Shown here piece after piece: positions 2,307-63,840 of a DNA stretch of 64,000 nt. Each line of letters starts with the position of its first letter. The first letter of the stretch is position 1. A program made the position numbers and the translations under genes. The notes beneath the pieces are model-generated. The model was not told where the DNA came from, ran no database searches, and was given only the letters and a program-made list of their open reading frames with translations. Source of the stretch: Cyanidioschyzon merolae (taxonomy: Eukaryota); assembly GCA_000091205.1 (NCBI GenBank), contig AP006495.2. One strand, given 5' to 3'.

Positions 2307-2318
2307 ATGAAAAACACG

Positions 2319-4444: not shown

Positions 4445-4870
4445 ACCGACTCTTCATACTGTCGCCTTTCTTGCAGCCTTTGATGTCGGGCTTCCTTCTT
4501 TTGCTCCTTCGTCTCGTCCTGTTCTTCTTTGCTTAGCACTATTTTTCATTCTCTCCGTAAGTCGGCGACACTGTGCCTCCGGGATCCTCCACTTGCTTTT
4601 CCATACCTTTCCTTTTTAATATTTTATGAAAAATAACGCTCGTTAAACGCGTCTGGTAGAAACCGCGAAAAATCACTTTCGTTCACTGACTTGAGGATTA
4701 GAACACAATTGAATTGAAAAACTATACGTTGCCACGACTTTAATGCAAATACAACTTGACCGGTAGAGCAACAAGACAACGAATGGTCACGAATGCATTT
4801 CCCTTCAAAGGCGACATGCGCGTCGTGTCTCGAGGCTGCCAGGTTTGGAGATGCGCGTATCGAGCGCGCT
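2330..4870 (-). mobile_element. Fanzor/TnpB-like element, copy A (decayed)
   Basis: Minus-strand ORF pieces 4220..4444, 3379..3993, 3219..3476 and 2319..3143 together align to one ~700-aa protein. It carries RuvC-I (VDGADPMNTNIIT), RuvC-II with a zinc-binding segment (TIPVDEFRTSYTHHELGC...EKCQRS) and RuvC-III (FVNRDFNVAINIRRC, about 2570-2597). Frameshifts fall near 3480 and 3200. The conserved 5' flank (to about 4870) and the 3' tail (to about 2330) are shared with copies B and C. Confidence 0.75.
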
Positions 4871-7107: not shown

Positions 7108-8789
7108 GCGAAAGTCTAATGCTCACTGCTTGCTCTAGAGCTTTCCAGAGGATGCACGATCAAACTGGAGGCCTCGCCCAGCACCCTACGCTTCTCATTA
7201 GTGTAAAATGGTCGTCAACGGAGCGCATGCTGTATTGTGCCTCGAAATGACTTGGGGAGTTGCTTTATCGTAGCGCGCGGCCATGTGGCTGCCGGGTTTG
7301 CTCGGTCGCGCACTGTGGTTCCGACCTCACAGCTTCGGGACTGGAGCGTTGGGACGACGTCCTACCTGTGCTGACTGCATTCATTTCAGAATGAAATGGA
7401 ACGGTTCCGTTAACTTGGACGTACAGGCCAAAGTTTGGGTTTCTTGCCACTGTAACCGACACTGGCCTTTGCGGGCTTTTTTCTAAGATTGCTTCCTTTT
7501 CCTCTTTCTTGTCCTTGGCTTGAAATGCCGCAGTTTCGCGTGCTGCACTAGCTCCGGTGACAGCAGTCGAGATATGTCACTGGCTGCGTTCAAATCCCGA
7601 TTTCCCGGCTTCCGACTGTTCTCTACGCCTCTCATGCGCAGGCGGAAGTAACGATATAAGCTTCGCTTACCGTTTTCATCTCCTTTGTGTGCAGCCTTGG
7701 TATGCACTTTTCAGCGGTGAAGCGTGACTGTAATCCGGTATCCCATGCGTCCGTCACACCTGTTCCTCCTGCGGGTACTGCCGAGTGGCGCGCGAACGCT
7801 TTGTTCATCGTTCGATACACGCTCCTGACGGGTACAGAAGGCTCGCCAGGAACTCCCTGCTCCGTTTCCACGCCTAGTGCCTTATCCTATGATAAGAGGT
7901 TTCCTTTGGGCGATCCCCCCCGGCGGGTATGCTGCCTGCTGTACACACAACACAGGTTGTCCCATTTATTAGAAGATTTACGGAACGCGATGTTGCCGAT
8001 GAAGAAGCGAGTTCCAGGAGGAAAATCGAGGCTCGAGACCCTGACGTGGAATTTCGGATCCGCCTGCGCTCCATTCACGCAAAGCGCTGACAATCTCTCC
8101 ACAGAGGGCGATCGCCGCGATGAGAAAAGTCTGAGTCCGAGATCCATTCCGAAGGAAAGATAAGAGACAAGAGCCCCTGAATGCATATTCCATGGAAGGT
8201 ATGATGCTTCTATGTAACGCAGATTCGCTCATGACCGTAAAATGAAAAGGATTAGCCATTCGACAGGAATCGCTCCGTTGACGTAAGAGGTTCGGCGAAC
8301 TTTCGGAATGTGCTTCTGAACAAGTCGGCAAAGGACGAAGTGAACTAACTTTCCTCGTCAATTCAACAACGCAAAGTGCTGTGCTTACGAGTTGCCTTGA
8401 AACAGAAAGATCGAAAACTAGAAAAATGCGGTATCCGCGCACGCTACACTTATGAAACACACATTATTGGGGGATTTTACGTCTGCATCGGATAACAAAA
8501 TCGGTTATTTCCCGATATCTGGTTCGAGGGCGTCGCGAATCATCTTGATTCCGATGACACAACGAATTCCATTGACGACGAATCGAAGGAGATACCCCAG
8601 AAAGATGACCGCGAATCCTTAAACAACTTATGCATGCGCAAGGCCCAAATGCTTCACGTCGAATCTCATGGCTGCAGATCTGGGAAAACGCGTAACAGAA
8701 TATCAAAAGGCACGGATAGAGCGAGCAGCCCAATGGTCTATAGTCATCCGACACTAGCGAAGACAACGAAAAAGCGCTCGCGAAAGATT

Positions 8790-9060
8790 CGCAACGGAAC
8801 GAAATCGTTTCACGAACACAGGGTAAATGAATACCCATTCACAGACTCCTTCAAACCTTTTTCGACCGGCCGCCTGTTATCGCTTTAAGCTTCTCCTTGT
8901 TGAATTCGAGCCTGAGAGGCTGTGCGAAAAAATCAGATCAAAGCAGCTCCTCGGGTCAAGTCTTCGTCAACGCATATCTCCTGATTCTTGTTGCAGTGTT
9001 AAGGTCTCGGTTCACGAATTCCATGCGTTTATTGCCTATGGTGGAACTCACCAATGTAGG
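8790..9060 (-). mobile_element. solo Fanzor 3' fragment (degenerate C-terminus plus tail)
   Basis: Reverse-complement translation reads GNKRMEFVNRDLNTATRIRRYALTK. The downstream segment cttttttcgaccggccgcc matches the conserved tail motif ttttctcgaccggcc. This is part of composite repeat (i). Confidence 0.55.
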
Positions 9061-9189
9061 GAGTCCTCGAACTCGCGTCCTCAAAGCCATTTCGCTGCTC
9101 TGTCAGCTCTCACTTATTTTCTATATCCTAAGCGCTGCGCTACCCTCTCCCCGTCAAGACCTTCTAAGTTGTACACCCTAGATCACCTC

Positions 9190-10110
9190 TTATTTTCTGA
9201 GAATGCACGCACTGTATTATGCCCTTTGGTGAGGACCCTCCCGGCAGGAGAAGCACTTGCGCAGGAGAGACGACATGGGTCCCAGTATGTCACCGTGCGC
9301 TGAACTCTTGAACGGTTCGCCCATTGGAGCGATCATAACGTTTCACAATTGAAATCTCTCTTCCGATTTAGTTGACCAACGGAGCGAATAGAGGAATGAG
9401 AAGCAGCTCTACCCGGATAGAAATCCCAAAGGCTCCAACGCAAGTGGAATTCTGAAATGCACGGTGTCCAACAGGAGGACGTATCCAGGTTTCAGGGAAA
9501 AGTTTTCTATGATTCGACGCAATGGTTGGTGCTGTCGTATACGAGCCCCCGCTACGAGCGAAACTGATGCCGACAGGTGGATGCGCTGCAGCTAGAACAC
9601 ATGATGATATCATCGTTCTCCTCCAGTTTGCTTGTACACACAAAGGCTCCCTTCACCTCCGGGAACATCCACATACGCTCCGACCGTCTCGTCCGAAATA
9701 ACTCTCATCGACTGAAAAAAAAACCGACGTCCCTGTGATTCATACTCTTTGTGAAGTTCCAGGAACGCTGCAGTCCCGATTTCGGTGCAAGATGGCCGTG
9801 AATGTCCTACCACTTTTTTGTGTCTGTAGCCCAGTGTTTGAGGACCACACGAACCAGCTGGTGAAAAACAGAGACACCTATTGTGGCTACTATCGTCGCT
9901 TTTGTTTCTCGTAAAGTGATCAATAGGACGTGTTCTATCATTGACTGCGAGCAGTCTCTGAGAATATCGGTTTTTGGCACGGAGCGCATACGCTCCTTTC
10001 TTACAGTGACCCCCAACCATATGAGTTCTGTTGTATAACTTACCTGAAAGCGAAATGCAGTCCTCCTTGCACTTTTCAGTAAGCAATGCATCCTACAGGC
10101 AATTCTGCTA
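9190..10110 (+). repeat. diverged copy of the ~950-bp 'MNALLRAS' repeat unit
   Basis: The 5' part (ttattttctgagaatgcacgcact..., with an AIITFH-encoding stretch near 9320-9350) and the 3' end (caaccatatgagttctgttgtata...cctacaggcaa, about 10020-10105) align to units 43177-44135 and 62899-63840. Confidence 0.5.
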
Positions 10111-11188
10111 CGTTCTATTCGGTACTTTTGCATAGCGATTTCGATCTCCCGAGATACACGGCCAAAAGTATTCGTCTACATGCAGCAGAGGTGCAGCAGA
10201 ATTGAGTTGAACGACTTTAAGAAGAGGCGCAGCGAGTTCCTGTCAATCGTTATCGGGCCATCAGAGATCCGAAACTCTTCATGGAAACAGGTAAACAATG
10301 TACGTCTTGAGAAGAGCCAAGCTTGAATGTTTCCGATAATGGAGAGAACATTCCCTCGAGGACAGCATCAGCAGAGCGCCATGGTTACATTTTTGAAGCA
10401 TTGTTTCTTCAACCTTTTCGCTCCAGTCAAGAAGCCTCCAGTCTAGTATCCGCGCGTCCAAATAAAGATCCGTGGAGCGAACGTCTCTATTGAAAGTTGC
10501 AGCTTATATGAACGTAACTTGGTATCCACGCATCGAGCGTATAAATAGACTAGCAGGGCGATCGAGCTTTCCGGCGGATGGGCCTCAGAGCACCCGGCTC
10601 ATCGAAGCATCGTGGAATAGACGCCTTCCTGCCGCTTCCGGGAGCGTGGACGCAGCACGGACAGCTAGCTGACCCCATTGGCGGCGGCTGCGCCCTCCAA
10701 GACCCCGAGACACGTCCTACATGTCTCGTAGGGGCCTGACATTGCGACCCACATCCTCCGCTCACTGAGTAGAACGCTTCATCGGGCCGCGACGAGCGTC
10801 GACTGAAAACAATCACCCTGTCCGTTTTATCCAGTATCTACTTGCTCCCTTCGGTACCGGCTGTCGCGCAGCCTGCGCCAACGAACTACTCAATACTCGT
10901 CTCGATGGTGAGTGCTAACGTGGGAGTCATTGCCCGCCCTGGCGACAATAGGAACACAAAGACCGCCGGTGTTTAGAAACAGAGGCCAAAGCGCCTGCCA
11001 TAGACGCCAGAGAAAGAGCCCGTAAGGCCGTGCGAACGGGTGCCGAAACGACTTTCACAGGGTGGTACGCGAAGCAGCACGAAGCAGCGACAGCTGCGAG
11101 TGCCTTTTTACGGACTCGAGGAGCGTTCCCCAACAGCGACAACCCTCAGTGATCAGCGACCAAGAGTGTGCGGAGAACTTGAGAAACT

Positions 11189-27974: not shown

Positions 27975-28789
27975 GTTTCCCCTTCACTGACTTGCCGGAT
28001 TGCATTATCATCATTGAAGGCAAGGCCTCCGCGGAGCAATATTTGAAACGCCATCTGCAGCATCCTCAAGGATGCTACTGCTAGTGATTCCGTCATGGGG
28101 GGCGCTGCCAGCTTTCCGGTAGCTGTGATGCCTGCAACTTTGCTGGTACTCTGTTCCCTTGATGCATGATTGGAGCGAATCTTCGGTTTGTGTACGTTAG
28201 CGAGCATGATGAGATGCCACGTGCACTGCGCCTGCGTCGGTTTCATGTTATGTGGAGGCTTTGAGGATCAGAATGGATGTGACGGCCATGAAAGCAAATG
28301 TGGCATCCTAGAATTGCGATGGAACGCAAAAGAAACGATGCCTAGTGCTGACCTCCCAAAGAGGAAACGGCAGAGGATGCTGGCAGCTCCTTTGCGATGG
28401 TGCCAGACCTTGATGGACATTTGATCCACGGGTTATCCCTACCTAGTGATAAACGACTTGTCCGTGCCAGTGGAACGAAGACTCCAGCGTGCTTGTATAC
28501 GTTTCATAATCTTTCACCTACATTGTGTTCCGGCCCTAGGTGGGTGTAATCAAATGCTTTTTCGAGGTTTATAGCAGATTCGCTCGAAAGGCGTTCTTTT
28601 TCAGAAATCGAAAATCTACAAAATGGTTTGGACGTGGAAATTGGGGGTCCCGGAGTTCCGTTGTCCCCGAGTTCAACAAAAAAAGGAAAAAATCCTCTTC
28701 TCGCCAACCTCGCAGCGAAGAAGAGCATGTTACGAAGATGAAGATTGTGACGAGACTGTAGTGGGACAGAGGGTACGAGTTCGAGGAAT

Positions 28790-29060
28790 TCTCCCACTAC
28801 TGTGTTCAACTGGCGGGAAGAAACGCAACGAGTTTGTGAACCGGGACTTCAATGCCGCCATGAATATCAGACGATGCACGGCGAAGCCGAGACCCGACCA
28901 GCCCACGCGAGCCAACTCTGTTGGGCAGCCTCTCAGGCTCGACGCGCAAAAGTAGAAGCTGAGGGCGATTGCAGGGGGCCCGCCAAGAACGGCTGGGAGG
29001 CGTTTGTGACTGGATATCCATTTACCCTACAGCTGCGAAACTTTTTCGCTCCGTTGAGCT
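28790..29060 (+). mobile_element. solo Fanzor 3' fragment
   Basis: Translation reads GGKKRNEFVNRDFNAAMNIRRCTAKPRPDQPTRANSVGQPLRLDAQK, followed by a tail containing ggctgggaggcgtttg. It overlaps the antisense strand of the 3' end of the TMEM53-like gene region. Confidence 0.6.
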
Positions 29061-29257
29061 TGCAGACCCTGCGCATCCCAACTGGACTCGAACCTAATAT
29101 CGATGTATCCAGAAAGATTAGGGGCGCATTAAAAGTACAGAAGAAACGCTCGTCCATGCAGAAACGTCGCGGAGGATCGCCCTAGTCGCATTCTGCAACG
29201 TGGCCGAGTAATCTGGTCGGAGATATTGCCCTGTTGTCTCTGGATTTGCAGCAATCT

Positions 29258-31799: not shown

Positions 31800-32110
31800 T
31801 GAGTCACCAATCGCAAAATCGTTGCAGAGCTAATTGCCCTGTAATGCTTCGTGGAACGAAAAATGTCCAACGACCATGGAGGGTACATGTATCTACCCTC
31901 TCGCAGACGCTTCCCAGCTTGTATTCGACCTGCCCCCAACTATCGGCTTCAGCTTCCCTTTGTCCGCTTGGAGCCTGAGAGGCCATCCCCCGAAGTTGGC
32001 TCGCGTCAGCTCCTCGGGTTTCGTCTTCGGCACGGCACACCGTCTTTTATTGATGGCGGTGTTGAAATCTCAGTTCATGAACTCCATGTGTTACCTGCTG
32101 ATGGTTGAAC
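31800..32110 (-). mobile_element. solo Fanzor 3' fragment (degenerate)
   Basis: The plus strand is antisense to the Fanzor C-terminus (antisense ORF LPFVRLEPERPSPEVGSRQLLGF... mirrors those of other copies). The tail motif gcagacgcttcccagc...cgacc is near 31886-31910. Confidence 0.5.
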
Positions 32111-32989
32111 CCATCAGTGCTTAGATTGCTAGAACTCGCGCCCTCGGCGCCACTAAAGTCTCGTCATCGCCCCGTCGCGCAGAAAGCTTTTTCTCCGATC
32201 TCCCCTTCTTCTTCTTTACTGGCTCATCTGCTATTGATGATCGGCGAGAAGAGGATTTTTTCGTTGTTTACCAGCAGTAGGCGGCAATGACGGCACTCCG
32301 GAATCCCCCACTTCCATGGCCAAACATTTCCTTTAGATTTCCTATTTCTTCAAATGAACGCGCTTCGAACAAATCTCCCGTAAACTGCGAAAAAGCATTC
32401 AATAGCATCCACATGGGGTGGAACATAATTAAGGTACTCCAAACCTAGACTGTTGCGCCTGGGCGTGAGCAGCCTGCGAACAATTTTACGCTGAGTTATC
32501 TGTTAAAGTCTTGGACTGATCCTGTGTGAAAGATAGTTGGTTTCAGAGCTTGCTGCGGTACGAAGATCGTGACCGAAAGTCAGGAAGGTTTGCGTTAGTC
32601 GCTTCGGCGTTTCACAGTACCCTTGATAAACGTTGGGCTGTGTCGAGGTATGCAATCGTAAGCGTTCCTGTTCAGCACCTCTGGAGCACCTGTTTTGGAT
32701 TTGGTCTCAGCCAGTAGGAGCTCTCGCAAAACCACAGAGTTGAGCGACCATAATTTAATGTGAGTTGCGGGAGCCGTAGTTTTCGTCCGCAAAATTGCCA
32801 TCAACCACGAACGACGCACTCGCTTAGGACCTCTTTTGTGTAGACTGGACAACAGCATCAAAGCTTGGGAATAAGGTTGTGCTGTATCCGGTCGAAAAAG
32901 TGCACGGCGGCGTCTCCGAAACGGCCACCAGGTTGCCTCCTTTCGTGAAAACTCTCGGACTCGCCGGGCATAACACCGAAAGAGGATCT

Positions 32990-39282: not shown

Positions 39283-39560
39283 CCGCACACCAACAACGCC
39301 GTTCGAAAGTCGAACGACGTCGGGCGTGTACAGAAGTGGCGAGTGACCCGCCCTAGACAAGAAGTCGCCATCTGTGGCGCAGACGCCTCCCAGCCCTTTT
39401 GGACCGGCCACCTACTATTGCTTCCAACCCTGTCTCATATATTTCAACTTTTAGAGGTTGTCCAATGAAGTTGTCTCTCGTCAACTCTGGAGGTCTCTTC
39501 TCCAGCACCGCACATCTCCTTATATTGATTGCGGCATTAAAGTCTCTGTTAACAAATTCC
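39283..39560 (-). ncRNA. candidate omega-RNA/right-end region of Fanzor copy B
   Basis: The last ~150 nt of coding sequence plus ~100 nt of non-coding tail are conserved in every copy and fragment. Antisense consensus is cagtagtggcg...gcgccctagac...ctgatgtgcagatgc...ttttctcgaccggcc. By analogy with TnpB/Fanzor this is where the guide RNA scaffold is encoded. Not shown to be transcribed. Confidence 0.35.
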
Positions 39561-41782
39561 GTACGTTTCTTGCCATCATTGGTTGTACACACTAATGCAA
39601 GCAGCCCTCGCACTTTCGCCCTCGTTTCCATTTGCTCCTCCATCAGCGGTCTGTACTTTGCTATTTCCTCAGGGCTCCTCTGGCACTTTTCCATTTCGAC
39701 CCTCTGAAGTGTGCACCCCAGCTCGTGGTGTGTATAGGACGTTCGGAACTCGTCTACAGGTATCGTAACGAAACGCCTTGCGCACTCCTTGTACACCCTC
39801 GTCGTTGGAGCTGGCGTAGTGCCGTTCTTGGGCGCCCAGCGCCCTGCCCCATACGTTACTACGAGCCTCTGACTTTCATTCTACTCGAGGGCGCTCAATT
39901 GATTAAAAAAATTCGCGAACGCCCGCTGCTTTTCACAGTAGAGATTCATTCGCAACCGAGCCCACCGGGGCTTGGTGTACTCCTCCCACAGCGCATCCCA
40001 ATGCGCAACGCGAACTTCCATGCATTCCCGAAAAGCTCGAAAGTCCGCTCCGCGGCTCGTCACCTCGCTCAAAGCTTCCAGGTGATCCTTCATTCCTGCT
40101 CTCCATGCCTCGATTTTCTTCCTTGCATTCATGATTCCCGATTCTCGATAGTACCTCGCTCTCGAGAATCTCAAAAGACGCATATCTTTCTGACGTAAGT
40201 TACCGTCAGTCCCATCTTCCGTACGCTTCGGTGCTGCGATGGTTATGATATTCGTATTCCCGGGGTCCGCGCCAAGGACAAAGTCGTTATCTTGCACTTT
40301 CTGGGTCGCAAGATCCGCCTCCTTCTTTTCTTCATGCTTCGCCGCGCTAACGACAATGTGGTTATCCTCCATCTCCTGCGTCGCAGAATCCGCCTCCTTC
40401 TTTTCTTCATGCTTCGTCACGTCAACGACAAAGTCGTTCTCATGCACTTTTTGCGTCGCAGGACCCACCTCCTTCTTTTCTTCATGCTTCGCCTCGTCAA
40501 CGACAAAGTCGTTATCCTCCACCTCCTGCATCGCAGGATCCTCCTCTTTGTTTTCTTCATCTTTCGTCACGGGCGCAGCTGAGGGAGGGACTGACCGATC
40601 TTTCTTCAACCGCCGATAGTGTACACACAAGGCTACTCCATCGGTTTCGATCATCCCAGTGAACAACTTTTGCTCGCTCACTCTCAGACGTTTGAAATTG
40701 AAGATATTCTTCCAGTACGTCTTCCGGTTTTCGCCGGTGAAGTCCTCCCTGCTAACAATGAACTCCGGACTGATCTCCTTCATGATGTCGTGAAGGACTG
40801 CGGAGTCGATAGTCACAAAATGTGACTTGATATTGTACAATGGAACCGCGTTGAAGCGCTTACCCATTAGGAAGGCCTTCCGTCTCTCCCACTGTTCATT
40901 TGTCTCTTCACTCAGCTTCATCTCTACTTTGCGTTCGAGTTCACGGTCCAGAAACACAACTTAGCGCAGGACGAGGCGGTAGTATCTTTCCTTATCTTTT
41001 TTCAGCTCTGATATCTTGTCTGTTGGATTCGCCAGACCCAAAACTGCACGGTGCTCTTCTACAACTGCACGGATTACAGAATCCTAATTTGTGCTCCTGC
41101 GTGACGCCTTCTTGTCGACAAATTCGAACTCATCTTCACACTGTCGATTGTTCGTGATGCCATTGATAATCGTCCATATCCCCTTGCGAGAGACGCCGGG
41201 ATAGAGTGCAAACACGTCGCGTATCATGAAACGTTCGTGGTTCATCGTCAATTGGTTCTTCAGGTTCGTAATGTACTTCATTGCCCCGTATGTGTAAATA
41301 TTTCCGTCACCGCAGTATCGATTACCCTCGAAGCAGAATTCCGCGAAGTTTTCGTGGAGGACTTCCACCCGCTCATTTTCCCTCCGCGCTTCCTCTGTAC
41401 CAAGCATCAGCTGACGAATAAAGGTCTTATCGAAAAACTCGTCCGGAATCTCGACCGTTTCCATGTTCGTCACGTCGCGATACATCTCCCTCGCTAGATG
41501 CATCAGTCCTGACGACGCCTTGAAAATACTCTTGGAGTACGAATCGAAACGTTTTTCGAATGCGTCTCGCATCTTTTCCCTGTAGTGATCCTTGATATGT
41601 TTAAGAAGACCGGCTTTCGCCACCATCTCGTCGTACAGTTGTCTTTCTTGCCGCCTTAGACGTTGAGCCTCCCCCTTTCGGTTCTTCTTCTCTTCCTTTT
41701 CTTCTGGACTCGGTACTGTTTTTTGTTTTTTTCTGGCAGCCGGCGACCCTGGACCTCCAGGATCGTCGATTTGCTTTTTCAT
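39353..41782 (-). pseudogene. Fanzor-like RNA-guided RuvC nuclease homolog, interrupted by stops and a frameshift (copy B)
   Basis: Three consecutive ORFs align colinearly to copies A and C. Catalytic D (RuvC-I), E (RuvC-II) and D (RuvC-III) motifs are all present in this copy. Confidence 0.75.
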
Positions 41783-42756
41783 AGCTTTCCTATTTTAGTT
41801 TTTTTGAAAAAGAATGCTCTTTGAACCCTTGTGTTACATACAGCGAAAAACACTTGACTAGACTTGTTTGAGGGCTGAAACAGAAACGAGCTGAAAGACT
41901 GTACTTGGCTACCACCTCAACGGATATCCGACTTTTTACAGCTGAACAACACGCTCCTGGTCAGCATCGCGTTTCCCTTCAACGGCGGCATGTGCATCGC
42001 GTCAGTTGACTGCCTGATCTCCGAGATGCGTTCATTAAGCGCAATGCGTCCACCGCACGAGACGCCACTCCGATCGATGAAGGACACGTGTCCGACACCC
42101 CGCATTGGCACATGCGTGTTCGCATCGCATTGCAGCCAAACTAAAGTATCGAAAATAGGAAACTCATGTAGAACGATCTCTTGCTATAGACTCTGTCGCT
42201 GGTGCCGAAGCTACTGCCCATCGCAGTACCGCCTTGACATACATGGAAATGTTGGGACCTGACGCGATACCTCGCGATGCTTCTATCAAAAGCATAGCGT
42301 TCTCTGCGGCTTACCGTTGTGTGGATGACGTATGCATCACTCTTCTCAAAAGGAATTTCGTTAGTTTTATTCATCGTAACCAAACTAGGTACGGTGGGAT
42401 TCCTGAACACGGACATACGTTTAATGCCGATGCTTGTCATGCATGCTGCACTGACGCTGGAATGAGGAACTGACCTGAATTATGCTTCTATCCTGCGTCA
42501 TAGGCTGGTACTGGTGACCGTTCAAGTCATTTCCATGCTATCGTCGTAGCCAACTTATGGTGCCCGCTACGTTCCCCGGATCCGGTGATCATGGTAGAGG
42601 CACACCACACATGTAGCGTCCATATCTGCCAAGACGTTCGAGCCTTGCATCTCGGCTGACACGATCGAGGAACCCGACAAAAGCACATACTGTATTCTGG
42701 TCTACTCCATAAGATTAGCTTCAAGAGCCTAACCCGTACATCGACGACCGCACACG

Positions 42757-43126
42757 CACACAAAACGCCGTTCCAAGTCGAAAGACGGCAGTGTACAGTA
42801 GTGGCGGCGAACGCGCCCTAGACAAAACGTCTCCAACTGATGTGCAGATGCTTCCTAGTTTTTCTCGACCAGTCCCCTGCTATCGGTTTCAGTTTCTCCA
42901 CGTTCACTTGGGCCTGGAGAAGCTGTCCCACAAAGTTGGTTCGCTTCAGCTCTGCGGGTCCCTTCTTCTGCACCGCAAAGCCCCATATATCAATAGCAGC
43001 ATTGAGGTCTCGCTCCACGATCCCCAAGCCTTTATTGATGCTGCTTGGACCGACCAGTGCAAGTCGTCCTCGAACTCGTGCCCTCTGTGCCAATTCCTTC
43101 TTTATCAGGTCTCCGTGTTTTTCCAT
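42757..43126 (-). mobile_element. solo Fanzor 3' fragment, part of composite repeat (ii)
   Basis: ORF 42818..43126 reads ...RARVRGRLALVGPSSINKGLGIVERDLNAAIDIWGFAV.... A well-conserved tail (cagtagtggcggcgaacgcgccctagac...ttttctcgacc) lies at 42757-42900. Confidence 0.65.
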
Positions 43127-43176
43127 CGCCGAAACGCCCCGCTGGCTCTTCTTAAAGTCGACGTTCTGAAACGTAC

Positions 43177-44135
43177 ATCCCAGCTTACATTTCCCGTGAA
43201 TTTTTCATTTCCTCAGAATGAACGCACTTCTTCGCGCCTCTAGGCGACGACCTGCCCGGAGACAGACGGACCTGCGGATGGACGACGATATGTGCCCCGG
43301 TGCGTTACATTGCGGTGCACGCTTCAGCGATTCGCCATGTGCAGCGATCATCACGTTTCACGAAAGGAAACACTCCTTCGATGCGGCTCAACCATGGACT
43401 GTACGAAGCAATGGAAAGCAGCGCTACCCCGATAGAATCGGCAAAGCCCGGGCGCGACGGGAAATAGTGCATTGGCGTATTGTCCTATATAAAAGGATAC
43501 GGCCAGGCGTCAGGGGGTGTGTCTTGAATGACTCGACGAAGTGGCTGGTGCTCTTGTATGAGCCTTCTGCAACAGCGAAACGGAGACCTCGAAATGAGTC
43601 CGCTGCAGCTGGAATAGATGATGATTTCCGAACTCTCCTTGAGTTTGGTGTTAGATATGAAGGGCGCCCTGTATGCGGATGCCCATGTACGATCCGGCTG
43701 TTTCGCGCGAAGGAGGTCTCGCCGGCTGAGCAACCGAACAGAAGCCCCTACGCCGCATACCGGCGGAGACGTTCCAGGAACTCTGCCGTTGCGATTTATG
43801 CGGAAGACAGGCATGAATGAAACAGGACTCTTTTTTGCGACTGTGTCGCAATGTCTCCAGGGCCGCACGAACGAGATGTCGACAAACAAAGACGACCGTG
43901 GTGGCTGCTATCGTCGCTTTTGGTTTCCGCAGAGTGCCTGTTGGGGCGCTTTTCTACGATTGACCGAAAACTTGCTTTAAGAATATCTGTTTACGCCGCG
44001 GAGCGAATGCACACTATTCCAGCGTTTCTCAACCATGTGAGTTCTGTGGTATGAGTGACCTGAAGAAAGAATGCAGTACACCTTGCACTGTTCAGAAACG
44101 ATATATACCCTACAGGCAACTCATCTATAATCTAT
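43177..44135 (+). repeat. ~950-bp 'MNALLRAS' repeat unit (copy 1), near-identical to 62899-63840
   Basis: Direct comparison of the two stretches shows >97% identity with one small indel near 43510. Its ORFs are not preserved between copies, so it is probably non-coding. Confidence 0.8.
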
Positions 44136-45625
44136 GCGGCACACAGCATAGTGATTTCGATATACCGCAATACATTCCAGCAAGGGCGAAACAAAGTTGA
44201 GATGAAAGACTACAAGCCAGGTGTACAAAATCTCAAGTTTTGGTCGCTTCCCACTGTCATCTGCAGAAGCCTTTGATGGCTTTTTATGCGTCTTCTTCGG
44301 TAATCACCGAGCCGAAGTCGGCTTTTAACTTTTCTGGTCTTTACTTTGCCTCCAGATTCGATATAGGCCAGCGAGGATTGTTGACGACGGCGTTCAAGAA
44401 CCTATTTTGGCGCCTCTCGCTGTTGCCAAGGCATACCATTCCATGACGGAGGTTGCCATCCAGCCTTCCCTTGCCATATTCGTCTTCTCTGCATGCAGGC
44501 TAGCTTATTCCTTGATAATGATACCACTTGGCTGTGGTAAGTGGTCCCATAAATTCACTACACCTCCTCTGCCTTCTGAGTACGACCCTGCGTCGCGTGA
44601 ACGCTTGTTCCGTCGCTCATTGCACGCCCATGACAGGTACTAATGGCTTTCCCCGATATCGTCCTCCGTCTCTGCGCCCGATACAGTACTGTGCAATCAG
44701 GGGCTACTTCTCGAGGATCTCCTCGGCGATTACTCTGTGAACTGACCGCGCAAGCGCACTGTCCCGTCCGATTTAGCATTTTGTAGAACGCGATGCTGCC
44801 CCTAACGAAAAACATACCATACACGAATCCGGTCTAGAGAACAAGTCGATTATTTTCATTCCGTCTACGCTTCCTTTGCGCAAAGTGATGACGGAATTTG
44901 TACATGAAGCGATTGCTGTGATGATTCTGGCCAGAAACTAGGACGTTTTCAATGCGGACAAAGGAGCCTGGAGATTCTGGTAACATATGCCATGAAAGGA
45001 ATCATGCTGGAGCCGAATACCATGTCGTCGACATTGACGGAGAAAGGGGGGTTTTATTTCGAACTAGATCGATTGTTAGACGTGAGAAAGTCATTGAGCT
45101 TTTGGATTAAGCGTATGTAGAAATCGTCAATGGACGACGTCAAATTTCTTTCTCTGTGAATCCAGCGGCGTGCATTGCTGTGCCCAAGCATTGCCTTGAA
45201 ACGGAAAGATGGAAAAATTGAAGTACGCAGGATTTGAACATGTTACATGGAAGGACGGGAGAAGACTGAAGGCCTGTCCGAATGGAATGGATTGTGATAA
45301 CGGGTATTTTTGAGCATTTGCTCAAAGGCGTCGCGAATAATTTTGTTTCAGATGAAGTGACGAATCCCGGCATCGAAGAGTCGACGGAATCTCTCTGCAA
45401 ACTCTAAGAAGACTCCTAAAACTAAGTATGAGCCTGTAAGCTTTTGTTGCTGGGCGTCGAATGCCGACGCGGCACAGAAATTCGGAATAAAAATCGAAAG
45501 GCAGGAGCGCAGCGAACAGTACAATGCTCCATTCGAACTGAATACGTTTTGGACAACAGATCCGGTGTTGTTCAGTGGCCACGGTTTGTATTTTTTGTGT
45601 GTCGATCCCTCGCCGGCGTAGCAAA

Positions 45626-51373: not shown

Positions 51374-51972
51374 CTAGGTAGCTTTTCCGTAGACACCCAG
51401 AATTTGTTTCAGCTCTCCACTGCGGTACATACTCTCCATAATATCGCTCCCTCCAATGAATTCGCCATCGACAAATAATTGCGGTATGGTGGGCCATTGG
51501 CTGTACTTTTTGATCGCCTCCCGTAGAAGCGGGTCCGCTAGCACATTATACGACTGGAACGGAACCCCCATGGCTTTCAGGATGCTCACAGCTTTGTAGC
51601 TGAAGCCACAGAGTGGGGCCTCGGGTTCCCCCTTCATATATAAAACAACTTTGCTCGACATGACGTCCCGCTCGATGCGCTCCATGACGTCCGCCCAGTC
51701 AGCGTCTGACGGCTGTTGCTTCCGCTGCGGTTGAAAGTCCGGGTGTGAGTTCCCTGAAGGGGTCTGCGAGGAAATAGCGCTATAAAGACGAAGGCCTCTC
51801 GCCCGGGGCGAAAAAGTTCCGTGATGATGCACAATGTGCTGCTGGCGACTGCAAGCAGCTGAAAAATTGCGGAAACGACCCCAAGCTGTTTCCAACTGCC
51901 CAGCACCCCGGTGCAGCTGCACGAAACCCATCAATAGCTTGGTCCCAGATACACCAAAACTCTTTGTCGCCA
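51374..51972 (-). CDS. GRX5: monothiol glutaredoxin (Grx5-type, CGFS active site), probably mitochondrial
   Basis: VVLYMKGEPEAPLCGFSYKAVSILKAMGVPFQSYNVLADPLLREAIKKYSQWPTIPQLFVDGEFIGGSDI. ~90-aa N-terminal presequence. The first ATG at 51972 sits inside the terminal ggtgtgATGgcgac of the Fanzor copy C right end. Confidence 0.85.
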
Positions 51973-51974
51973 TC

Positions 51975-54625
51975 ACACCGCAAAACGCCTTTCAAAAGAC
52001 AAAAGCTGTCGCCGGCAGTGCACAGCAGTGGCGAGTGACCCGCCCTGGACAAGACCTCTCAACTAATCTGCAGACGCCTTCCAGCTTTTCTCGACCGGCA
52101 ACCTACCAGTGATTCCAACTTTTTCTCATATACTTCCACCTTCAGAGATTGTTCCACAAAATTCCCTTTTGTCGGCCCGGGAGGTCTCTTTTCCATCACC
52201 GCACATCTACGTATACTGAAAGCGGCGTTAAAGTCTCGGTTCACGAATTCCATGCGTTTCTTCCCGTCCGTCCGACTCACTAGTGCGAGTCGCTCACGAA
52301 CTTTCGCCCTCCTTTCCATTTGCTCCTCCGTCAGCGGTCCGTACTTTTTTATTTCTTCAGGGTTCCGCTGGCACTTTTCCATCTCGGCCCTCTGAAGTGT
52401 ACAGCCCAGTTTATGGTGTGTATACGATTTTCGGAACACATCTATCGGTATCGTAACGAAACACCGTGCATACTCTTTGTAGGGTCTTTTCGCTGGAGCT
52501 GGCATAGTGCCTTTCTTGGGCGCCCATCGTCCTGCTCCGAATGCCACTACGAGCCTCTGACTGTCATCCTCCTTCAAGGCGCTCAACTCGTTGAAAAAAT
52601 TCGCGAATGCACGCTTCCTCCCACAATACATGTTCAGTCGCAGACGAGCCTACATGGGCTTCGAATACTCCTTCCACAGCGCATCCCAATGAGCAACGCG
52701 AACTTCCATGAACTCCCGAAAAGCTTTAAAGTTCGCTCCGCGGCTACTAGCCTCGCTCATAGCTTCCAGGTGATCCTTCACTCCTGGATTCCACTTCTCA
52801 AATTTCTTCCTCTCATTCATCATACCGGATTCTCGGTAGTATCTCGCTCTCGAGAATCTCAAAAGACGCATATCTTTCTGACGTAAGTTACCGTCAGTCC
52901 CATCTTCCGCACGCTTGGGCACAGCGACGGCTATAAAATTCGTGTTTCCAGGGTCAGCGCCAAAGACAAAGTCGTCCTCATGCACTTTTTGCGTCGCAGG
53001 ACCCGCCTCCTTCTTTTCTTCGTGCTTCGCCTCGTCAACGACAAAGTCGTTATCCTCCACCTCCTGCATCGCAGGATCCTCCTCTTTGTTTTCTTCATCC
53101 TTCGTCACGGGCGCAGCTGAGGGAGGGACTGACCGATCTTTCTTCAACCGCCGATAGTGTACACACAAGGCTACTCCATCGGTTTCGATCATCCCAGTGA
53201 ACAACTTTTGCTCGCTCACTCTCAGACGTTTGAAATTGAAGATATTCTTCCAGTACGTCTTCCGGTTTTCGCCGGTGAAGTCCTCCCTGCTAACATTGAA
53301 CTCAGGACTGATCTCCTTCATGATGCCGTAGAGGACGCCGGAGCCGATAGTCACAAAATGTGACTTGATATTGTACAATGGAACCGCGTTGAAGCGCTTA
53401 CCCATCCGGAAGGCCTTCCGTCTCTCCCACTGTTCATTTGTCTCTTCACTCAGCTTCATCTCCGCTTTGCGTTCGAGTTCACGGTCCAGAAACACAACTT
53501 AGCGCATGACGAGGCGGTAGTATCTTTCCTTATCTTTTTTCAGCTCTGATATCTTGTCTGTTGGATTCGCCAGACCCAAAACTGCACGGTGCTCTTCTAC
53601 AACCGCACGGATTACAGAATCCTAATTTGTGCTCCTGCGTGACGCCTTCTTGTCGACAAATTCGACCTCATCTTCACACTGTCGATTGTTCGTGATGCCA
53701 TTGATAATCGCCTATATTCCTTTGCGAGAGATGCCCGGGTAGAGTGCAAACACGTCGCGTATCATGAAACGTTCGTGGTTCATCGTCAATTGGTTCTTCA
53801 GGTTCGTAATGTACTTCATTACCCCGTATGTGTAAATATTTCCGTCACCGCAGTATCGATTACCCTCGAAGCAGAATTCCGCGAAGTTTTCGTGGAGGAC
53901 TTCCACCCGCTCATTTTCCTCCCGCGCTTCCGCTGTACTAAGCATCAGCTGACGAATAAACGTCTTGTCGAAAAACTCGTCAGGAACATCGACTGTTTCC
54001 ATGTGCGTCACGTCGCGATACATCTCCCTCGCTAGATGCATCAGTCCTAAAGAAGCCTCAGGAAAACTCATGGAGTCCAACTCGCAACAGTTTCTGATGG
54101 ACTCCCGCAATTTTTGCTTTTACGAATTCTTGCTATGTCCGAGAAGACAGGCTTTCACGACCATCTCGTCGTACAGTCGTCTTTCTTGCAGCCATTAACG
54201 TAGGGCCTCCCCCTTCTGCTTCTTCGTCTTGTCTCGTTCCTCTATGTTTGGCTCTATGTATCGTTTTTTTCGCCAGCCAGCGATACTGGCCCTCCAGGGT
54301 CCTCCACGTCGCTGTCCAGAACATTGGTTTTTTATTTTTTGAAATAGAACGCACTATGAACGTCTCTGCTCTAAACCACGAAAAATACTCGAATACTCTT
54401 ATTTGAGGGTTGAAACACAACTGAAATAGAAGCCGTACTTGGCTACGACCTGACCGGAAATCCAACTTTTACATTACGGCCACACGCCAGAGATTAAGAT
54501 CACGTTTCCTTTCAACGGCGACATGCGCGTCGTGTCTCATGTCTGCCTGATCTCCCGGGTGCGCTCACCAAGCGCAATGCGTGCACCGCGCGAGACGCTG
54601 CACCAATCGATAAAGGCCTAAGATC
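51975..54625 (-). mobile_element. Fanzor/TnpB-like element, copy C (pseudogene)
   Basis: ORFs 53712..54110, 52650..53495 and 52059..52631. RuvC-I FGADPGNTNFIAV. RuvC-II is degraded to IPIDVFRKS (E to V). RuvC-III is degraded to RDFNAAFSI. Two TGG-to-TAG nonsense changes (about 52645 and 53700). It shares the same TAG/TAA in-frame stops as copy B (53500-53640). Two acidic repeat units. Confidence 0.8.
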
Positions 54626-57574: not shown

Positions 57575-58090
57575 CGCTTACACCGCTGGCAAACGCCTTT
57601 CAAAAGTCGAAAGCAGTCGTCAGCAGTGCACAGTAGTGGCGGCAAACGCGCCCTGGACAAAACGTCTTCAGCTGAACTGCCGAAGCCTCACTGTCTCTCT
57701 CGACCGGCCACCTACAACTGGCTTCAACTTCATTCCGTACAATTCGACCATGGAAGGCTGCCACACAAAGCTGGCTCCTGTCAGCTCCTCGAATCGCTTC
57801 TCCAGCACCGCGCATCGTCTGATATTGATAGAAGCATTAAAGTCTGGGTTCACAAACTCCATGCGCTTCTTGCCCCCGTTGGTTGTACCCACCAGTGCGA
57901 GGAGTCCTCGAACTTTCGCCCTCATTTCCATCTGCTCTTCCGTCAACGGTCTGTACTTTTCTATATCCTCAGGGATTGGCTGAAACTGCTCTATCTTGAC
58001 CCTCCGGGACGTACACCGCAGCTCGTGGTGTATATATGATGTTTGGAGCTCATGTATCGGTATTGTGACGAAGCATCGTTCGCAATCCTT
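57575..58090 (-). mobile_element. solo Fanzor 3' fragment (longest; includes the RuvC-II region)
   Basis: ORF 57668..57946 reads ...RAKVRGLLALVGTTNGGKKRMEFVNPDFNASINIRRCAVLEKR. 57950-58090 aligns to the copy A DEFRTS region. A conserved tail (gcctttcaaaagtcgaaagc...cagtagtggcggcaaacgcgccctggac) lies at 57575-57700. Confidence 0.65.
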
Positions 58091-58719
58091 GTACGCTCAT
58101 TCCGAGTCGCTGTTAACCGGAAACGATATTCTCCTCGAAAAGCCATGAAAGTGGTGCTGTGGCTTTCCGCCAGACACGGTGGCTGCTTTTGCCGTGCCCA
58201 TGGCCCTGCAGGCGTGTTTCAGGGTGCGCTGACTGCACAAAAGCGCCGAGTTCGCGCTGCTGCCCTAGCATCTGGGTGCTGGCAGCTCCACAGCACAGAT
58301 ATCTCATGATGTGCGGGTGGAGCATGCTGCTTCAGCACCGTAAGAACGACGCGCTCTCATGCGCGTTCCCCCATGATCCAAGATGTAATCCATAGAGTGA
58401 TACTGGCGGCTATCACCGAGCGTCTTGCATATAGAATGCAAATCTGGGAACTGCATCCTAGGGCTCGGAGTTCCATGTCACGAACAGTGCATATGCTCAA
58501 GATCGGTGCTCGAAGCGAACGCGCTGTACACCATACACTGCATTGCTGCACGAGAACAGTGCTATGCTCGGGGCCGGATAGAGTACCTTACGAAAAGTCA
58601 GCAGGAACGTCGCTTTCAGGTACGGTGCGTGACACGGGCCAGGCGAGAGCGATCCGTTTGCCCCTCACTTCGGAATGCGAATTCGCTGTTCATGAGTGTC
58701 TTCCCGTAGTAATGCCTCT

Positions 58720-59010
58720 TTACTTCAGTTCAGAGGCGCGCCTGTTCGAGTTGGTTTTGCGCTTGCGTTCGAGCTTTTTGCCGATTCTATCGTGGAGTAG
58801 ACCTGCTTTTTATTCCTCCTTGTACTCCGTGATTCACGCCCATCAAAGACGTATTTTCTATTGTGAAACGTAATGATCGCAGCACTGGGCGAATCGCTGA
58901 AGCGTTCTGCACAATCACGTCGGAGCATACGTCGTCGTTCTTCAGCAAGTCTTTCTCCCTCCGGCCAGATCGTCGACTACGGGCATTCAGAAGTGCGTCC
59001 ATTTGACGAA
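58720..59010 (-). repeat. partial 'MNALLRAS' repeat unit (inverted), adjacent to Fanzor fragment 59270-59520
   Basis: Minus-strand ORFs encode MDALLNARSRRSGRREKDL... and ...CAERFSDSPSAAIITFHNRKYVFD, homologous to the start of units 43177 and 62899. Confidence 0.5.
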
Positions 59011-59269
59011 ATAGAAAATCCGTGCGAAAGGTATGGACATGAAATCTAGGGATTCCGGAGGGCTGTCATTGCCAGGCACCGGGAAAATGGAAATAATCCC
59101 CTTCTCGTCGACCACTGAGCGAAGAAGAGCAAGTGACGACGACGACAAAGAAGAGAATAGATAGGCGAGAAAAGATGCATGCCCGACGAGACGCAGGCGA
59201 TTCTTGAGTAGCACAGAGGGCGCGAGCTCTTAGAATCTTCGCATAGATGAATTCAGTCAGCGGCAATAA

Positions 59270-59520
59270 ATGAAAGGTATTCGTGAACCGAGACTTCAAC
59301 GCCGCCATCAACATCAGGTGATATCTGGTGTCCAGGACGAGACCCGAGGATCTGAGGCGATCCAGCTTTGTGGGGCAGCCTCTCAGACTCGAATTGCAGA
59401 AGGAGGAGCTGAAACCGATAGCAGAGGGGCTGTCTAAAACGGGCTTGGAGGTGTTTGTGAGTGGATATTGATTTATCATGCATCGCTGCCGAACGTTTGT
59501 AGTTTCACGGACGATGGGCA
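59270..59520 (+). mobile_element. solo Fanzor 3' fragment
   Basis: 59274-59320 reads VFVNRDFNAAINIR then a stop. Next comes ...SSFVGQPLRLELQKEELKPIAEGLSKTGLEVFVSGY and the tail gggcttggaggtgtttgtg. Confidence 0.6.
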
Positions 59521-61083: not shown

Positions 61084-62462
61084 TCATCCGCTCGTTCCTT
61101 GACTTGCGGCAAATTATAGAGCCATATTCCAAATAAGAGCACGCCTAAACCGAGCAGGACCATAAACGAAAAACGAGACTGGACCAGCAGCGGTACTGGC
61201 AGGCAGAAAACTAGCGTTGTTAGCGGCACAGAAATCAACGATGCAACCACGGAGTCGAGAGCGGATGCGATTTTCAGCAATCGCAAACCCGTGATGTTGA
61301 ATACAATATTCACAGCAACGTACGCAAGAGCTAGCCACGGCATCCAACTGCTCTCACGCCCCGCAAATGTGCTGAGTGCACTAGAAAAGTAATCGCCAAT
61401 GGAGGGGCTTTCAGCCAAGCGAGCTGCAAAAGGTGTTGTGAAAGGCAGCATGAGCGAGATAGCAGCAAACTGCATGAGGCTCGAAAAAGTATTGACAATG
61501 AACAGATCCGGTTGCACGCCACTTCGTTTGAAAACGCGCTCTTTGAGTACAACGGCTAAGGCAACGAATGCGTAGGATCCGAAGAATAAAAACGCATTCA
61601 TCCATACGCCTCCCGAAGAGAGATTCAAAGCTGCTTCGTTCACAGTTTGAGGGCCAATGGAAATCAGCACACCGGCGAGGACAACAAGCATGCCATAAAT
61701 TTGGGTGAGCGTGTAGCGACGACCTAGCAGAGCATACGAGGCCAAGGCAATGAATATGAGGATTCCTTGATTCAGTACTGGAAGCAGAGCACCGGGAAGC
61801 CGAGAAGCAGTAAACATACCGATTACGAAAGTAAGCGCCTCCAGTGCCCCAATGAGGGCGAACAGACGCCAGTTATTCACTGCCCACTTGACCTGCGTCA
61901 TAGGGACAATACGCATGCGCACTCGTATCCAGAGAATAGAGGCATAAACCAGCACGTAGCACAAGGTGACAAAAAGTGAGAGGAAAAATGTGTACGAATA
62001 CATTATCTGCAAGTCCATCCGGTAAACTACGCGGTTCAAGACCGATAACGCCACGTACGCTGCAGTGGTCAACAGCACGTCAGACGACACCCGCGTCGCT
62101 ATTCTACCACCCGTTTTTGCAGTTTTATTCTGCTGCATGAGCAAAGAGGCTTTCCGCATTTCAACGGGTCTACTTCGGGGTGCAGTAAAGCGGGGTCCAG
62201 GCTCCACGGGGCACCCCGCAAACGTTACTCGTGCCCTAGCGCCAGTCGAGCGGAAGGCTTGGTAAAGCCGACTGACAGGCGCTTTATTTACCTCCGCTGG
62301 ACTAGCAACATGATTTCTACGGGCAAAGGGGTTAGACTTTATGGAGTGAGCGGAACAAAACTGTGATATCCATCCACTGTTGGTGAACATTGCATGCTCA
62401 TCTTTGCCACCAGAACGAAAAATTTGCCACCGCCGGGTAAATTCATGCTCGCGCGCAGACAT
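61080..62462 (-). CDS. CRT-like transporter (PfCRT/CLT family, DMT superfamily), ~10 TM
   Basis: [11 protein letters not shown] resembles Pf[80 protein letters not shown] resembles [72 protein letters not shown]...NTFSSLMQF...LPF resembles REIVFKKYKI...NAMVSFFQLF...LPV. ATG at 62462 lies inside Fanzor-derived sequence, so the start is uncertain (alternatives at 62393 or 62156). The 3' end overlaps the uL3 stop by 4 bp. Confidence 0.65.
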
Positions 62463-62764
62463 CTGCTAGCCTCTCTCGACTGGCTACCTGCTACAGGATT
62501 CAGTTTCTTTTTGTACATTTCTACCCTGAGAGATTGCCCCACGAAGTTGGCTCTTGTCAGCTCTGCGGGTCTCTTCTTCAGCACCGCACATCTCTCGATA
62601 TTGATAGCAGCATTAAAGTCTCGTTTCGCGTACTCCTGGCGTGCATAGTCGTTGGTTGAAGTCATCTCTCCAGGAATTTCTGGTAATCGTTCCCTCTGTA
62701 CCACGTTAGTAATGTCATCGCCCCGTCGGTCAAAAGAGTCTTCTCGGCTGTCTCCCTTTTTCAT
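62345..62764 (-). mobile_element. solo Fanzor 3' fragment, part of composite repeat (iii)
   Basis: ORF 62339..62764 reads ...YARQEYAKRDFNAAINIERCAVLKKRPAELTRANFVGQSLRVEMYKKKLNPVAG. The tail motif gcagacatctgctagcctctctcgactggc is at 62455-62490. The fragment overlaps the 5' end of the CRT-like ORF. Confidence 0.6.
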
Positions 62765-62898
62765 ATTCTTCTTCTACGTCATCGTCACTTGCTCTTCTTT
62801 GCTTGATGGTCTTCGAGACGAGAAATTTTTCATTTTCTTTCGAGGCCGGAGATGACGGCCCTCCAGGATCTTCGAATTCCATGTGCTAACGTTTCCCA

Positions 62899-63840
62899 TG
62901 AATTTTTCATTTCCTCAAAATGAACGCACTTCTTCGTGCCTCTAGGCGACGACCTGCCCGGAGACAGACGGACCTGCGGATGGACGACGATATGTGCCCC
63001 GGTGCGTTACATTGCGGTGCACGCTTCAGCGATTCGCCATGTGCAGCGATCATCACGTTTCACGAAAGGAAATACTCCTTCGATGCGGCTCAACCATGGA
63101 CTGTACGAAGCAATGGAAAGCAGCGCTACCCCGATAGAATCGGCAAAGCCCGGGCGCGACGGGAAATAGTGCATTGGCGTATTGTCCTATATAAAAGGAT
63201 ACGGCCAGGCGTCAGGGAGTGTGTGTCTCGAATGACTCGACGAGGTGGCTGGTGCTCTTGTATGAGCCTTCTGCAACAGCGAAACGGAGACCTCGAAATG
63301 AGTCCGCTGCAGCTGGAATAGATGATGATTTCCGAACTCTCCTTGAGTTTGGTGTTAGATATGAAGGGCGCCCTGTATGCGGATGCCCATGTACGATCCG
63401 GCTGTTTCGCGCGAAGGAGGTCTCGCCGGCTGAGCAACCGAACAGAAGCCCCTACGCCGCATACCGGCGGAGACGTTCCAGGAACTCTGCCGTTGCGATT
63501 TATGCGGAAGACAGGCATGAATGAAACAGGACTCTTTTTTGCGACTGTGTCGCAATGTCTCCAGGGCCGCACGAACGAGATGTCGACAAACAAAGACGAC
63601 CGTGGTGGCTGCTATCGTCGCTTTTGGTTTCCGCAGAGTGCCTGTTGGGGCGCTTTTCTACGATTGACCGAAAACTTGCTTTAAGAATATCTGTTTACGC
63701 CGCGGAGCGAATGCACACTATTCCAGCGTTTCTCAACCATGTGAGTTCTGTGGTATGAGTGACCTGAAGAAAGAATGCAGTACACCTTGCACTGTTCAGA
63801 AACGATATATACCCTACAGGCAACTCATCTATGATCTATA
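62899..63840 (+). repeat. ~950-bp 'MNALLRAS' repeat unit (copy 2)
   Basis: Near-identical to 43177-44135. Ends with the shared ...ttctcaaccatgtgagttctgtggtatgagtgacctgaag...cctacaggcaactcatctat. Confidence 0.8.

Follow-up and report, generated by a model that had tools for sequence, protein, structure and literature searches.

A pseudogenised CMe-1A Fanzor1 copy in Cyanidioschyzon merolae and its right end, a candidate ωRNA template

We analysed a 64,000-nt stretch of Cyanidioschyzon merolae DNA (assembly GCA_000091205.1, contig AP006495.2; hereafter the window). Positions 39283-39560, read on the minus strand, form the 3′ terminus of one pseudogenised copy of CMe-1A, a Fanzor1 element. They comprise the final ~70 codons of the nuclease, which run from the RuvC-III motif to the stop codon, followed by a non-coding right end of 58-67 nt. 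On balance, our analysis favours a dual role for this region, which would be both the cis-acting right end of the element and the template of its guide RNA (ωRNA). Earlier publications cover the element family, the place where Fanzor guide RNAs are encoded, and ORF-less guide-bearing derivatives. New for CMe-1A are the right-end anatomy, the alternative tails, two deletion families, the GGTG motif, and the loss of the zinc finger. The locus is what a Fanzor element is expected to show and no new kind of system.

A Fanzor1 family and its nuclease

The repeat is ~2.8 kb long, and the window holds three full-length copies, A, B, and C, with pairwise identities of 72-90% (Table 1). Its family is CMe-1A, as matched by published description. 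CMe-1A was described as a C. merolae Fanzor1 family of ~3 kb with ~150 copies at ~80% identity, without TIRs, with TSDs undetermined, and with a 635-bp 5′ module that also occurs in another repeat (Bao and Jurka, 2013, PMC3627910). The repeat in the window agrees with this description in host, length of ~3 kb, high copy number, a single Fanzor1 ORF, and the lack of TIRs or TSDs, indicating that the element itself was already known. Compared by description only, the likeness to CMe-1A/TE-N2_CMe extends to copies of ~70-90% identity and to a modular 5′ part common to other repeats; right-end anatomy, tail variants, deletion families, and a guide-RNA proposal are not part of the CMe-1A description (PMC3627910). 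The genes around the repeat are eukaryotic, intron-free, and plastid-related, and identity of the RPL3 ORF to BAM81088.1 identifies the host strain as C. merolae 10D. Inside the element we found neither a second ORF nor a TnpA (Y1 HUH) gene, and a literature search yielded no link between Fanzor guide RNAs and C. merolae.

The majority consensus of the copies gives one ORF of ~759 aa, whose closest database relatives are metagenome proteins. Single ORF fragments matched almost nothing in Pfam or the PDB (a weak PF07282 match, E=0.009), and Fanzor structures were reached only by a family profile. This profile, built from the consensus and seven homologs, matched SpuFz1 (8GKH, E=7.7e-15) and the Parasitella Fanzor1 (9CF0, E=8.5e-14). 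An Asp (GADPG, RuvC-I), a Glu (VDEFRTS), and a second Asp (RDFNAAINI, RuvC-III) align to the catalytic motifs of SpuFz1. In the consensus, AYGAG places an inert residue at the canonical RuvC-II Glu site, and an alternative Glu follows in VDEFRTS; the rearranged catalytic site of Fanzors has been defined previously (PMC10530073). The profile match and the aligned D/E/D residues bear out the original prediction that the repeat is TnpB/Fanzor-like, and on sequence grounds we assign it as a Fanzor1 (TnpB-like) element.

The C4 zinc finger is part of the Fanzor/TnpB motif (Bao and Jurka, 2013, PMC3627910). This whole clade lacks the finger: no CxxC pairs were found between [TS][TS] and RD in the consensus or in the metagenome homologs P0001, P0031, and P0032, and such pairs do occur in P0033-35, which are more distantly related. 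The zinc-finger-less stretch (TSYTHHELGCTLQRVEMEKCQ ... LLALVSTT in the consensus, about 39590-39740 in copy B) still has the codon-position pattern of purifying selection.

No intact ORF is present in A, B, or C, each being broken by stops or frameshifts. The metagenome relative P0001 has a 752-aa ORF that is 73% identical to the consensus over 92% of the consensus and stops about 34 codons before the consensus stop. Among 56 non-redundant copies, identity to the majority base in the C-terminal half was ~0.93 at codon positions 1 and 2 versus 0.82 at position 3, indicating past purifying selection on the protein in the source lineage. Over the final 180 nt of the ORF, third-position (synonymous) identity rose to 0.866 versus 0.821 upstream (p=0.017), and identity at four-fold sites to 0.851 versus 0.792 (p=0.027). 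Raised synonymous conservation of this size is a modest sign of a possible overlapping function at the nucleotide level. A lone third-position peak (0.91 versus ~0.82) was also seen 660-720 nt 5′ of the stop codon (about 40015-40075 in B). The ORF further contains an acidic tandem repeat of 75 nt (25 codons, KHEEKKE...DNDFVVD), with ~4 units in B (40267-40571), two in C (near 52953-53109), one in A (near 3314-3391), and several in P0001.

Copies B and C have two in-frame stops in common that are absent from A and, because these stops are inactivating, must have been copied after the gene was dead. Compared with their homology to other copies, that between B and C is longer by about 80 nt on the left and about 17 nt on the right; the limits given for copy B in Table 1 were taken from the B/C homology on the left and from the GGTGTG motif on the right. 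Homology of copy A with some metagenome copies runs upstream to at least 5300: A and the metagenome loci L002 and L011 have at least 440 more nt in common, and ~600 nt are alignable between A and L002. Since the 5′ extent of homology differs between subfamilies, the exact left end and the TAM are not fixed. A hairpin lies near the left end (B about 42030-42060, C 54560-54590, A 4840-4865, L001 about 2676-2700), with compensatory variants between copies (GCGCG/CGCGC, CGCG/CGCG, TGCG/CGCA, TGCGC/GCGCA). Immediately beyond the right end of copy C (51984), a glutaredoxin-like (Grx5-type) ORF (51374-51976) begins on the same strand, an arrangement that places the insertion within the upstream region of that gene.

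Table 1. Coordinates of element copies, right-end features of copy B, and a neighbouring gene in the window. HMM denotes the nhmmer match of the 3′-end profile.
Feature	Coordinates	Strand	Remarks
Copy A	2293..4870	-	Full-length pseudogene; HMM 2293-2919; G1 tail 2342-2438
Copy B	39284..42083	-	Full-length pseudogene, two in-frame stops; ORFs 41084-41782, 39881-40957, 39353-39796; HMM 39243-39869
Last ORF fragment of copy B, 147 aa	39353..39796	-	VDEFRTS and RDFNAAINI; TAG stop 39353-39355
~215-nt coding block	39375..39590	-	Sole part common to 10/10 window copies
RuvC-III motif RDFNAAINI	39521..39547	-	By translation; aligns to NRDM... of SpuFz1 (8GKH)
G1 non-coding tail, 58 nt	39295..39352	-	Stop codon to ...GGCGTT; candidate ωRNA scaffold and right end
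Small GC hairpin GGCG-loop-CGCC	39338..39352	-	Directly 3′ of stop codon
Terminal hairpin ACGTCGTTCGA-CTT-TCGAACGGCGT	39296..39320	-	Position of 3′ foot fixed in independent copies
GGTGTG motif	39286..39291	-	GGTG 39288-39291; 0-7 nt past hairpin foot
Copy C	51984..54616	-	Full-length pseudogene; HMM 51936-52557; G1 tail 51984-52080; two inactivating stops in common with B
Short copy, G1	57592..58103	-	Codons ~613-759; no 5′ homology; HMM 57576-58103; G1 tail 57592-57689
Deletion derivative, G1	42764..44174	-	~1 kb of 5′ non-coding DNA (43183-44174) fused to codons ~637-759 and tail (42764-43187); HMM 42750-43187; G1 tail 42764-42854
Deletion derivative, G2	8775..10158	-	Junction similar to 42764-44174; HMM 8838-9185; 3′ limit approximate
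Deletion derivative, G2	62385..63839	-	5′ non-coding region, start and ~60 N-terminal codons, last ~80 codons; HMM 62449-62663; 3′ limit approximate
Deletion derivative, G2	28507..29070	+	5′ UTR and start region kept; HMM 28760-29009; 3′ limit approximate
Deletion derivative, G2	31840..32435	-	5′ UTR and start region kept; HMM 31901-32174; 3′ limit approximate
Deletion derivative, G2	58777..59520	+	HMM 59213-59459; 3′ limit approximate
RPL3 ORF	59911-61083		Identical to C. merolae 10D BAM81088.1 / XP_005537124.1

Tails and anatomy of the right end

An HMM built from the 3′-terminal ~630 nt of copies A, B, and C matched exactly ten copies in the window with nhmmer, comprising the three full-length pseudogenes and seven short copies, which lie close to the solo fragments noted originally. 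The E-values (1e-26 to 1e-215) indicate that this similarity is not due to chance. The original prediction held that all copies keep the same 3′ coding end and tail. For the coding end this is correct: a block of ~215 nt that includes ...GGCCGGTC...GAGGCGTCTG is found in all ten copies. The quoted tail (cagtagtggcg, gcgccctagac, tttcaaaagtcgaaag), here termed G1, occurs in only five of them, namely the three full copies and two short ones, and the same five alone were matched in the window by a G1-tail covariance model (B 39295-39389, 100.8 bits). The other five copies carry a different tail, G2, diverging right after GAGGCGTCTG, just before the stop codon, into GGGTA-loop-TACCC ... TTTTTCGTTCC. 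A third tail type was present in L089, a full-length relative of 55% identity. Across the window and some 290 kb of related loci, no tail-only copies lacking coding sequence were found, and every assessable copy bearing the 5′ part also has the 3′ block. The minimum kept by any derivative is about 215 nt of 3′ coding sequence plus a tail.

To delimit the right end we used 80 related metagenome loci, which reduce to 33-35 independent insertions with distinct flanks. In 35 independent insertions, the tail is conserved up to ...GAACGGCGTT (...GGCGTT), beyond which similarity collapses. Given that the stop codon of copy B occupies 39353-39355 and that similarity between independent copies ends at 39295, the non-coding tail is 58 nt long, or ~67 nt when measured to GGTGTG; the ~100 nt initially proposed was an overestimate. 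The last 25 nt form a terminal hairpin of 8-12 bp. Variants of the form CGTTTTTC-TTTT-GAAAGACG or ...TTCTA-CTT-TAGAA... keep the stem and leave the 3′ foot unmoved. Over 35 copies, the terminal hairpin had a mean z of -2.06, and z was below -2 in 57% of copies. Because of G·U pairs, the sense strand folds more stably than its complement (on average -11.4 versus -8.8 kcal/mol, Wilcoxon p=1e-6). Among 71 distinct metagenome tail sequences, ~15 have lost or replaced the last ~35 nt, and the terminal hairpin is absent from these. At L045 (654-808), a second copy of the final ~60 nt of the right end follows in tandem directly after ...GGCGTT.

The expectation that the tail ends near a GGTGTG motif was confirmed. 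GGTG occurs within 12 nt past the hairpin and its ...GGCGTT foot in 57% of the 35 independent insertions, compared with a background of 3.2%. The first 12 nt of the flank are G/T-rich; from about 12-20 nt outward, base composition is again that of the background and the sequence is variable. GGTG(TG) could be either the true element terminus or a target-site motif. Comparison of the left and right flanks of five copies gave no target-site duplications above shuffles, no inverted repeats were found at the element ends, and an Rfam scan of 39100-39700 returned no match. From the stop codon outward, the order of the right end is therefore the small GC hairpin, the terminal hairpin, the foot ...GGCGTT, a short variable spacer, and GGTG.

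A check of the tails for covarying pairs gave a divided result. RNAalifold, applied to 33 independent 3′ ends of 200 nt, yielded a weak consensus of 11 pairs (-4.8 kcal/mol), and it missed the terminal hairpin because the variants use shifted registers. In place of RNAalifold we used a structure drawn by hand, an alignment to a covariance model, and folding of each sequence separately. In the hand-drawn three-helix structure, 84% of cells pair, and the covariation score was 0.169 versus 0.124±0.010 for shuffles (0/500 as high) and at most 0.110 for slid partners. The covariance-model alignment of 59 distinct sequences gave 0.156 versus 0.106±0.007 (0/500), with slid partners at most 0.077, and 46 cells changed on both sides versus 24.5±3.4 expected. 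Compensatory changes were detected in seven of the ten terminal-hairpin pairs, and one inner pair of the small GC hairpin alternates between C:G and G:C (CG:21 / GC:18). Since such controls can be inflated by relatedness among the sequences and by an alignment fitted to the model, we read the covariation as moderate support for local hairpins and not for a global scaffold. In single-sequence folds, copy B reached z=-4.1, and the other four of the five window tails (-0.6 to +1.2) folded no better than shuffles. A candidate long-range pairing of CGCCACTACTGT with an upstream ACnGGGAGGCG was rejected, as a variable position would not stay paired with an invariant partner.

Short copies as deletion derivatives

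The short copies had been taken for variable 5′ truncations. This description does not hold: at least six of the seven also contain the 5′ non-coding region of the element, and only 57576-58103, which may be a true 5′ truncation judging by its sequence, lacks it. In four short copies, the 5′ UTR and start region were detected upstream of the C-terminal block (nhmmer E=4e-25, 1e-18, 3e-11, 4e-5), and 8858-10158 and 42861-44174 have ~1 kb of upstream non-coding DNA in common with 62885-63839. No preferred frame was found for this ~1-kb repeat in tblastx comparisons of the three. The short copies' C-terminal codons run only from ~613, 637, or 665-686 to the end (tblastn). Because at least six of the short copies include 5′ DNA of the element itself, we assign the origin of these six to internal deletion, and their 5′ regions and junctions point to at least two independent deletions that gave rise to non-autonomous families, which later multiplied. 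The families keep the 5′ non-coding region, the last 75-125 codons, and the tail.

These derivatives also bear on what the retention of the 3′ end means. In old short copies, the 3′ block (64-73% identity) and the 5′ parts (65-68%) have diverged equally since insertion, so individual copies are not being preserved. Part of the apparent 3′ retention is an ascertainment effect, since copies were found via their 3′ ends and 5′-only relatives, TE-N2_CMe, are on record (Bao and Jurka, 2013, PMC3627910). Because both ends persist in the short copies, as is usual for non-autonomous derivatives, retention of the 3′ end need only mean that it is a cis-acting right end, an alternative that the original prediction also raised.

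Within this set, 43183-44135 and 62885-63839 form a 955-nt upstream non-coding region of 98.7% identity, and the 3′ parts attached to it are only ~72% identical and have different tail types. This contrast suggests that the region was exchanged recently by recombination or gene conversion, or that it is mobile on its own. The insertion at 58777-59520, at the RPL3 locus, is present in six of six metagenome strains (98.3-98.8% identity), and no empty site was found among these six. Other dispersed repeats of 65-70% identity, unrelated to the Fanzor element, are also present in the window (24165-24534/31337-31703; 25038-25318/48233-48511, inverted; 8297-8423/45096-45222).

A proposed guide-RNA template, or a right end only

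Characterised Fanzor and TnpB guide RNAs are transcribed from the 3′ end adjoining the right end, and all tested Fanzors take their guide RNA from the non-coding right-end region, reaching 11-21 nt into the flank (PMC10432273, PMC10530073). The placement of the ωRNA at the 3′ end in the original prediction agrees with these reports. [quoted passage not shown] Its position, similar length, strand-biased hairpin, and sharp end followed by variable DNA lead us to favour the dual role. By homology, the tail would act both as the right end that mobilisation in trans requires in cis and as the template of a Fanzor ωRNA, with a scaffold made from the tail, perhaps plus up to 180 nt from the end of the ORF, and a guide read from the variable DNA just past the element end. 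The internal-deletion copies, in at least two independent families, are non-autonomous, 'ghost-like' derivatives; ORF-less 'ghost' loci that keep the ωRNA have a published precedent (Saito et al., 2023, PMC10432273).

The proposal of an ωRNA scaffold gains from the Fanzor1 protein, the right-end position, the sharp 3′ boundary, the sense-biased hairpin with its compensatory changes, and the slightly raised synonymous conservation. It loses from the weak global fold, the four of five window tails that fold no better than shuffles, and the equal divergence of 3′ block and 5′ parts in old short copies. Counting against a guide RNA, too, are that half of the copies carry another tail, that ~15 of the 71 metagenome tails lack the terminal hairpin, that all three full copies are pseudogenes, and that the zinc finger is absent. 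If the tail were a transposon end acting purely at the DNA level, a hairpin and the persistence of both ends would be expected just as much.

The main rival follows from this last point. The tail might be a cis-acting right end only, a DNA or ssDNA hairpin with a GGTG cleavage or target motif read by some transposase, with short-copy retention reflecting the needs of transposition and no guide RNA made. This explanation, which we regard as possible although doubtful, accounts equally well for retention of both ends and for GGTG. It is in keeping with the 5′ non-coding region kept by at least six of seven short copies, as in ordinary non-autonomous derivatives, with a hairpin near the end and GGTG strongly enriched just past it, with the compensatory variants of the left-end hairpin, with the weak global RNA fold, with the equally fast divergence of 3′ block and 5′ parts in old copies, and with the 5′-only TE-N2_CMe relatives (PMC3627910). 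It fits less comfortably with a protein that is a Fanzor1 whose catalytic residues were under past purifying selection, given that the guide has come from the region of the right end in every Fanzor tested to date. Moreover, G·U pairs give the sense strand better folding than the antisense strand, and synonymous conservation over 180 nt together with at least 215 nt of retained coding sequence exceeds what a short terminal recognition site would need.

Two further explanations fit less well than this rival. The tail could be a 3′ UTR of the Fanzor mRNA with transcription-termination or polyadenylation signals, as its place directly 3′ of the stop codon, its shortness (58-67 nt), and its sense-biased structure might suggest; we consider this quite improbable, since in 35 independent insertions conservation ends at one fixed position that is the repeat end, the tail is kept in deletion derivatives without an intact ORF, and no terminator-like T run follows the hairpin. 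A 3′ bias produced by one-ended, rolling-circle (Helitron2-type) copying from the 3′ end, which would leave 5′-truncated copies as in Chlamydomonas CRe-1/2/3, has literature precedent (PMC3627910) and could draw on the 3′ subterminal hairpin, the varying 5′ extent of homology between subfamilies, and the one short copy without 5′ homology (57592-58103), but it is very unlikely because the 5′ region of the element itself persists in at least six of seven short copies, no left end has an asymmetric terminal inverted repeat of the CCACTACTGTACAC block nearby, the flanks of five copies gave no TSDs, and no CTRR-type terminus is present.

Comparison with known systems places the dual-role interpretation in context. 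Spu-1 of Spizellomyces punctatus (PMC10432273) has a Fanzor1 protein, SpuFz1, to which the profile matches (E=8e-15), and many ORF-less derivatives that keep the element ends; SpuFz1 uses an ωRNA scaffold of 75 nt (Saito et al., 2023, PMC10432273). Spu-1 differs in having 30-nt inverted repeats and a CA/CATA motif, whereas the C. merolae family lacks inverted repeats, has lost the zinc finger, and has derivatives that still hold 75-125 C-terminal codons. RNA expression has been demonstrated for Spu-1, whereas an RNA from the C. merolae tail is a prediction. The Fanzor1 elements CRe-1/2/3 in Helitron2 transposons of Chlamydomonas (PMC3627910, PMC10530073) resemble the C. merolae family in an excess of 3′ ends and a 3′ subterminal hairpin. 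Their conserved 3′ region for a non-coding RNA and their additional solo copies of the guide RNA would have counterparts in the C. merolae tail and short copies. Unlike CRe-1/2/3, the C. merolae family has no asymmetric terminal inverted repeats, TSDs, or T-rich target, and its short copies are internal deletions rather than 5′ truncations.

Bacterial IS200/IS605 elements with TnpB, such as ISDra2, share a TnpB-family nuclease, hairpins near both ends, and the lack of inverted repeats and TSDs, and their guide RNA overlaps the ORF 3′ end and the right end. In contrast to these elements, the C. merolae element has no TnpA (Y1 HUH) gene, resides in a eukaryotic host, has a left boundary that is not defined, and carries its conserved flank motif (GGTG) on the right side and not the left. 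These likenesses admit a more speculative and unlikely scenario in which CMe-1A moves as its bacterial IS200/IS605 ancestors do, by single-strand copying, with strand-specific hairpins near both ends, a right-end GGTG, and no inverted repeats or target duplications. A zinc-finger-less Fanzor1 would then use guides from the DNA beyond the right end, and deletion derivatives would supply additional guides in trans.

In the haploid and genetically tractable alga C. merolae, a genome of 16.5 Mb holds about 150 copies of this one Fanzor family. Its defined right end, the candidate template for a guide RNA, and naturally occurring derivatives without an ORF would offer specific targets for experiments in this alga, which could show what part Fanzors play for their transposons in a natural eukaryotic host.
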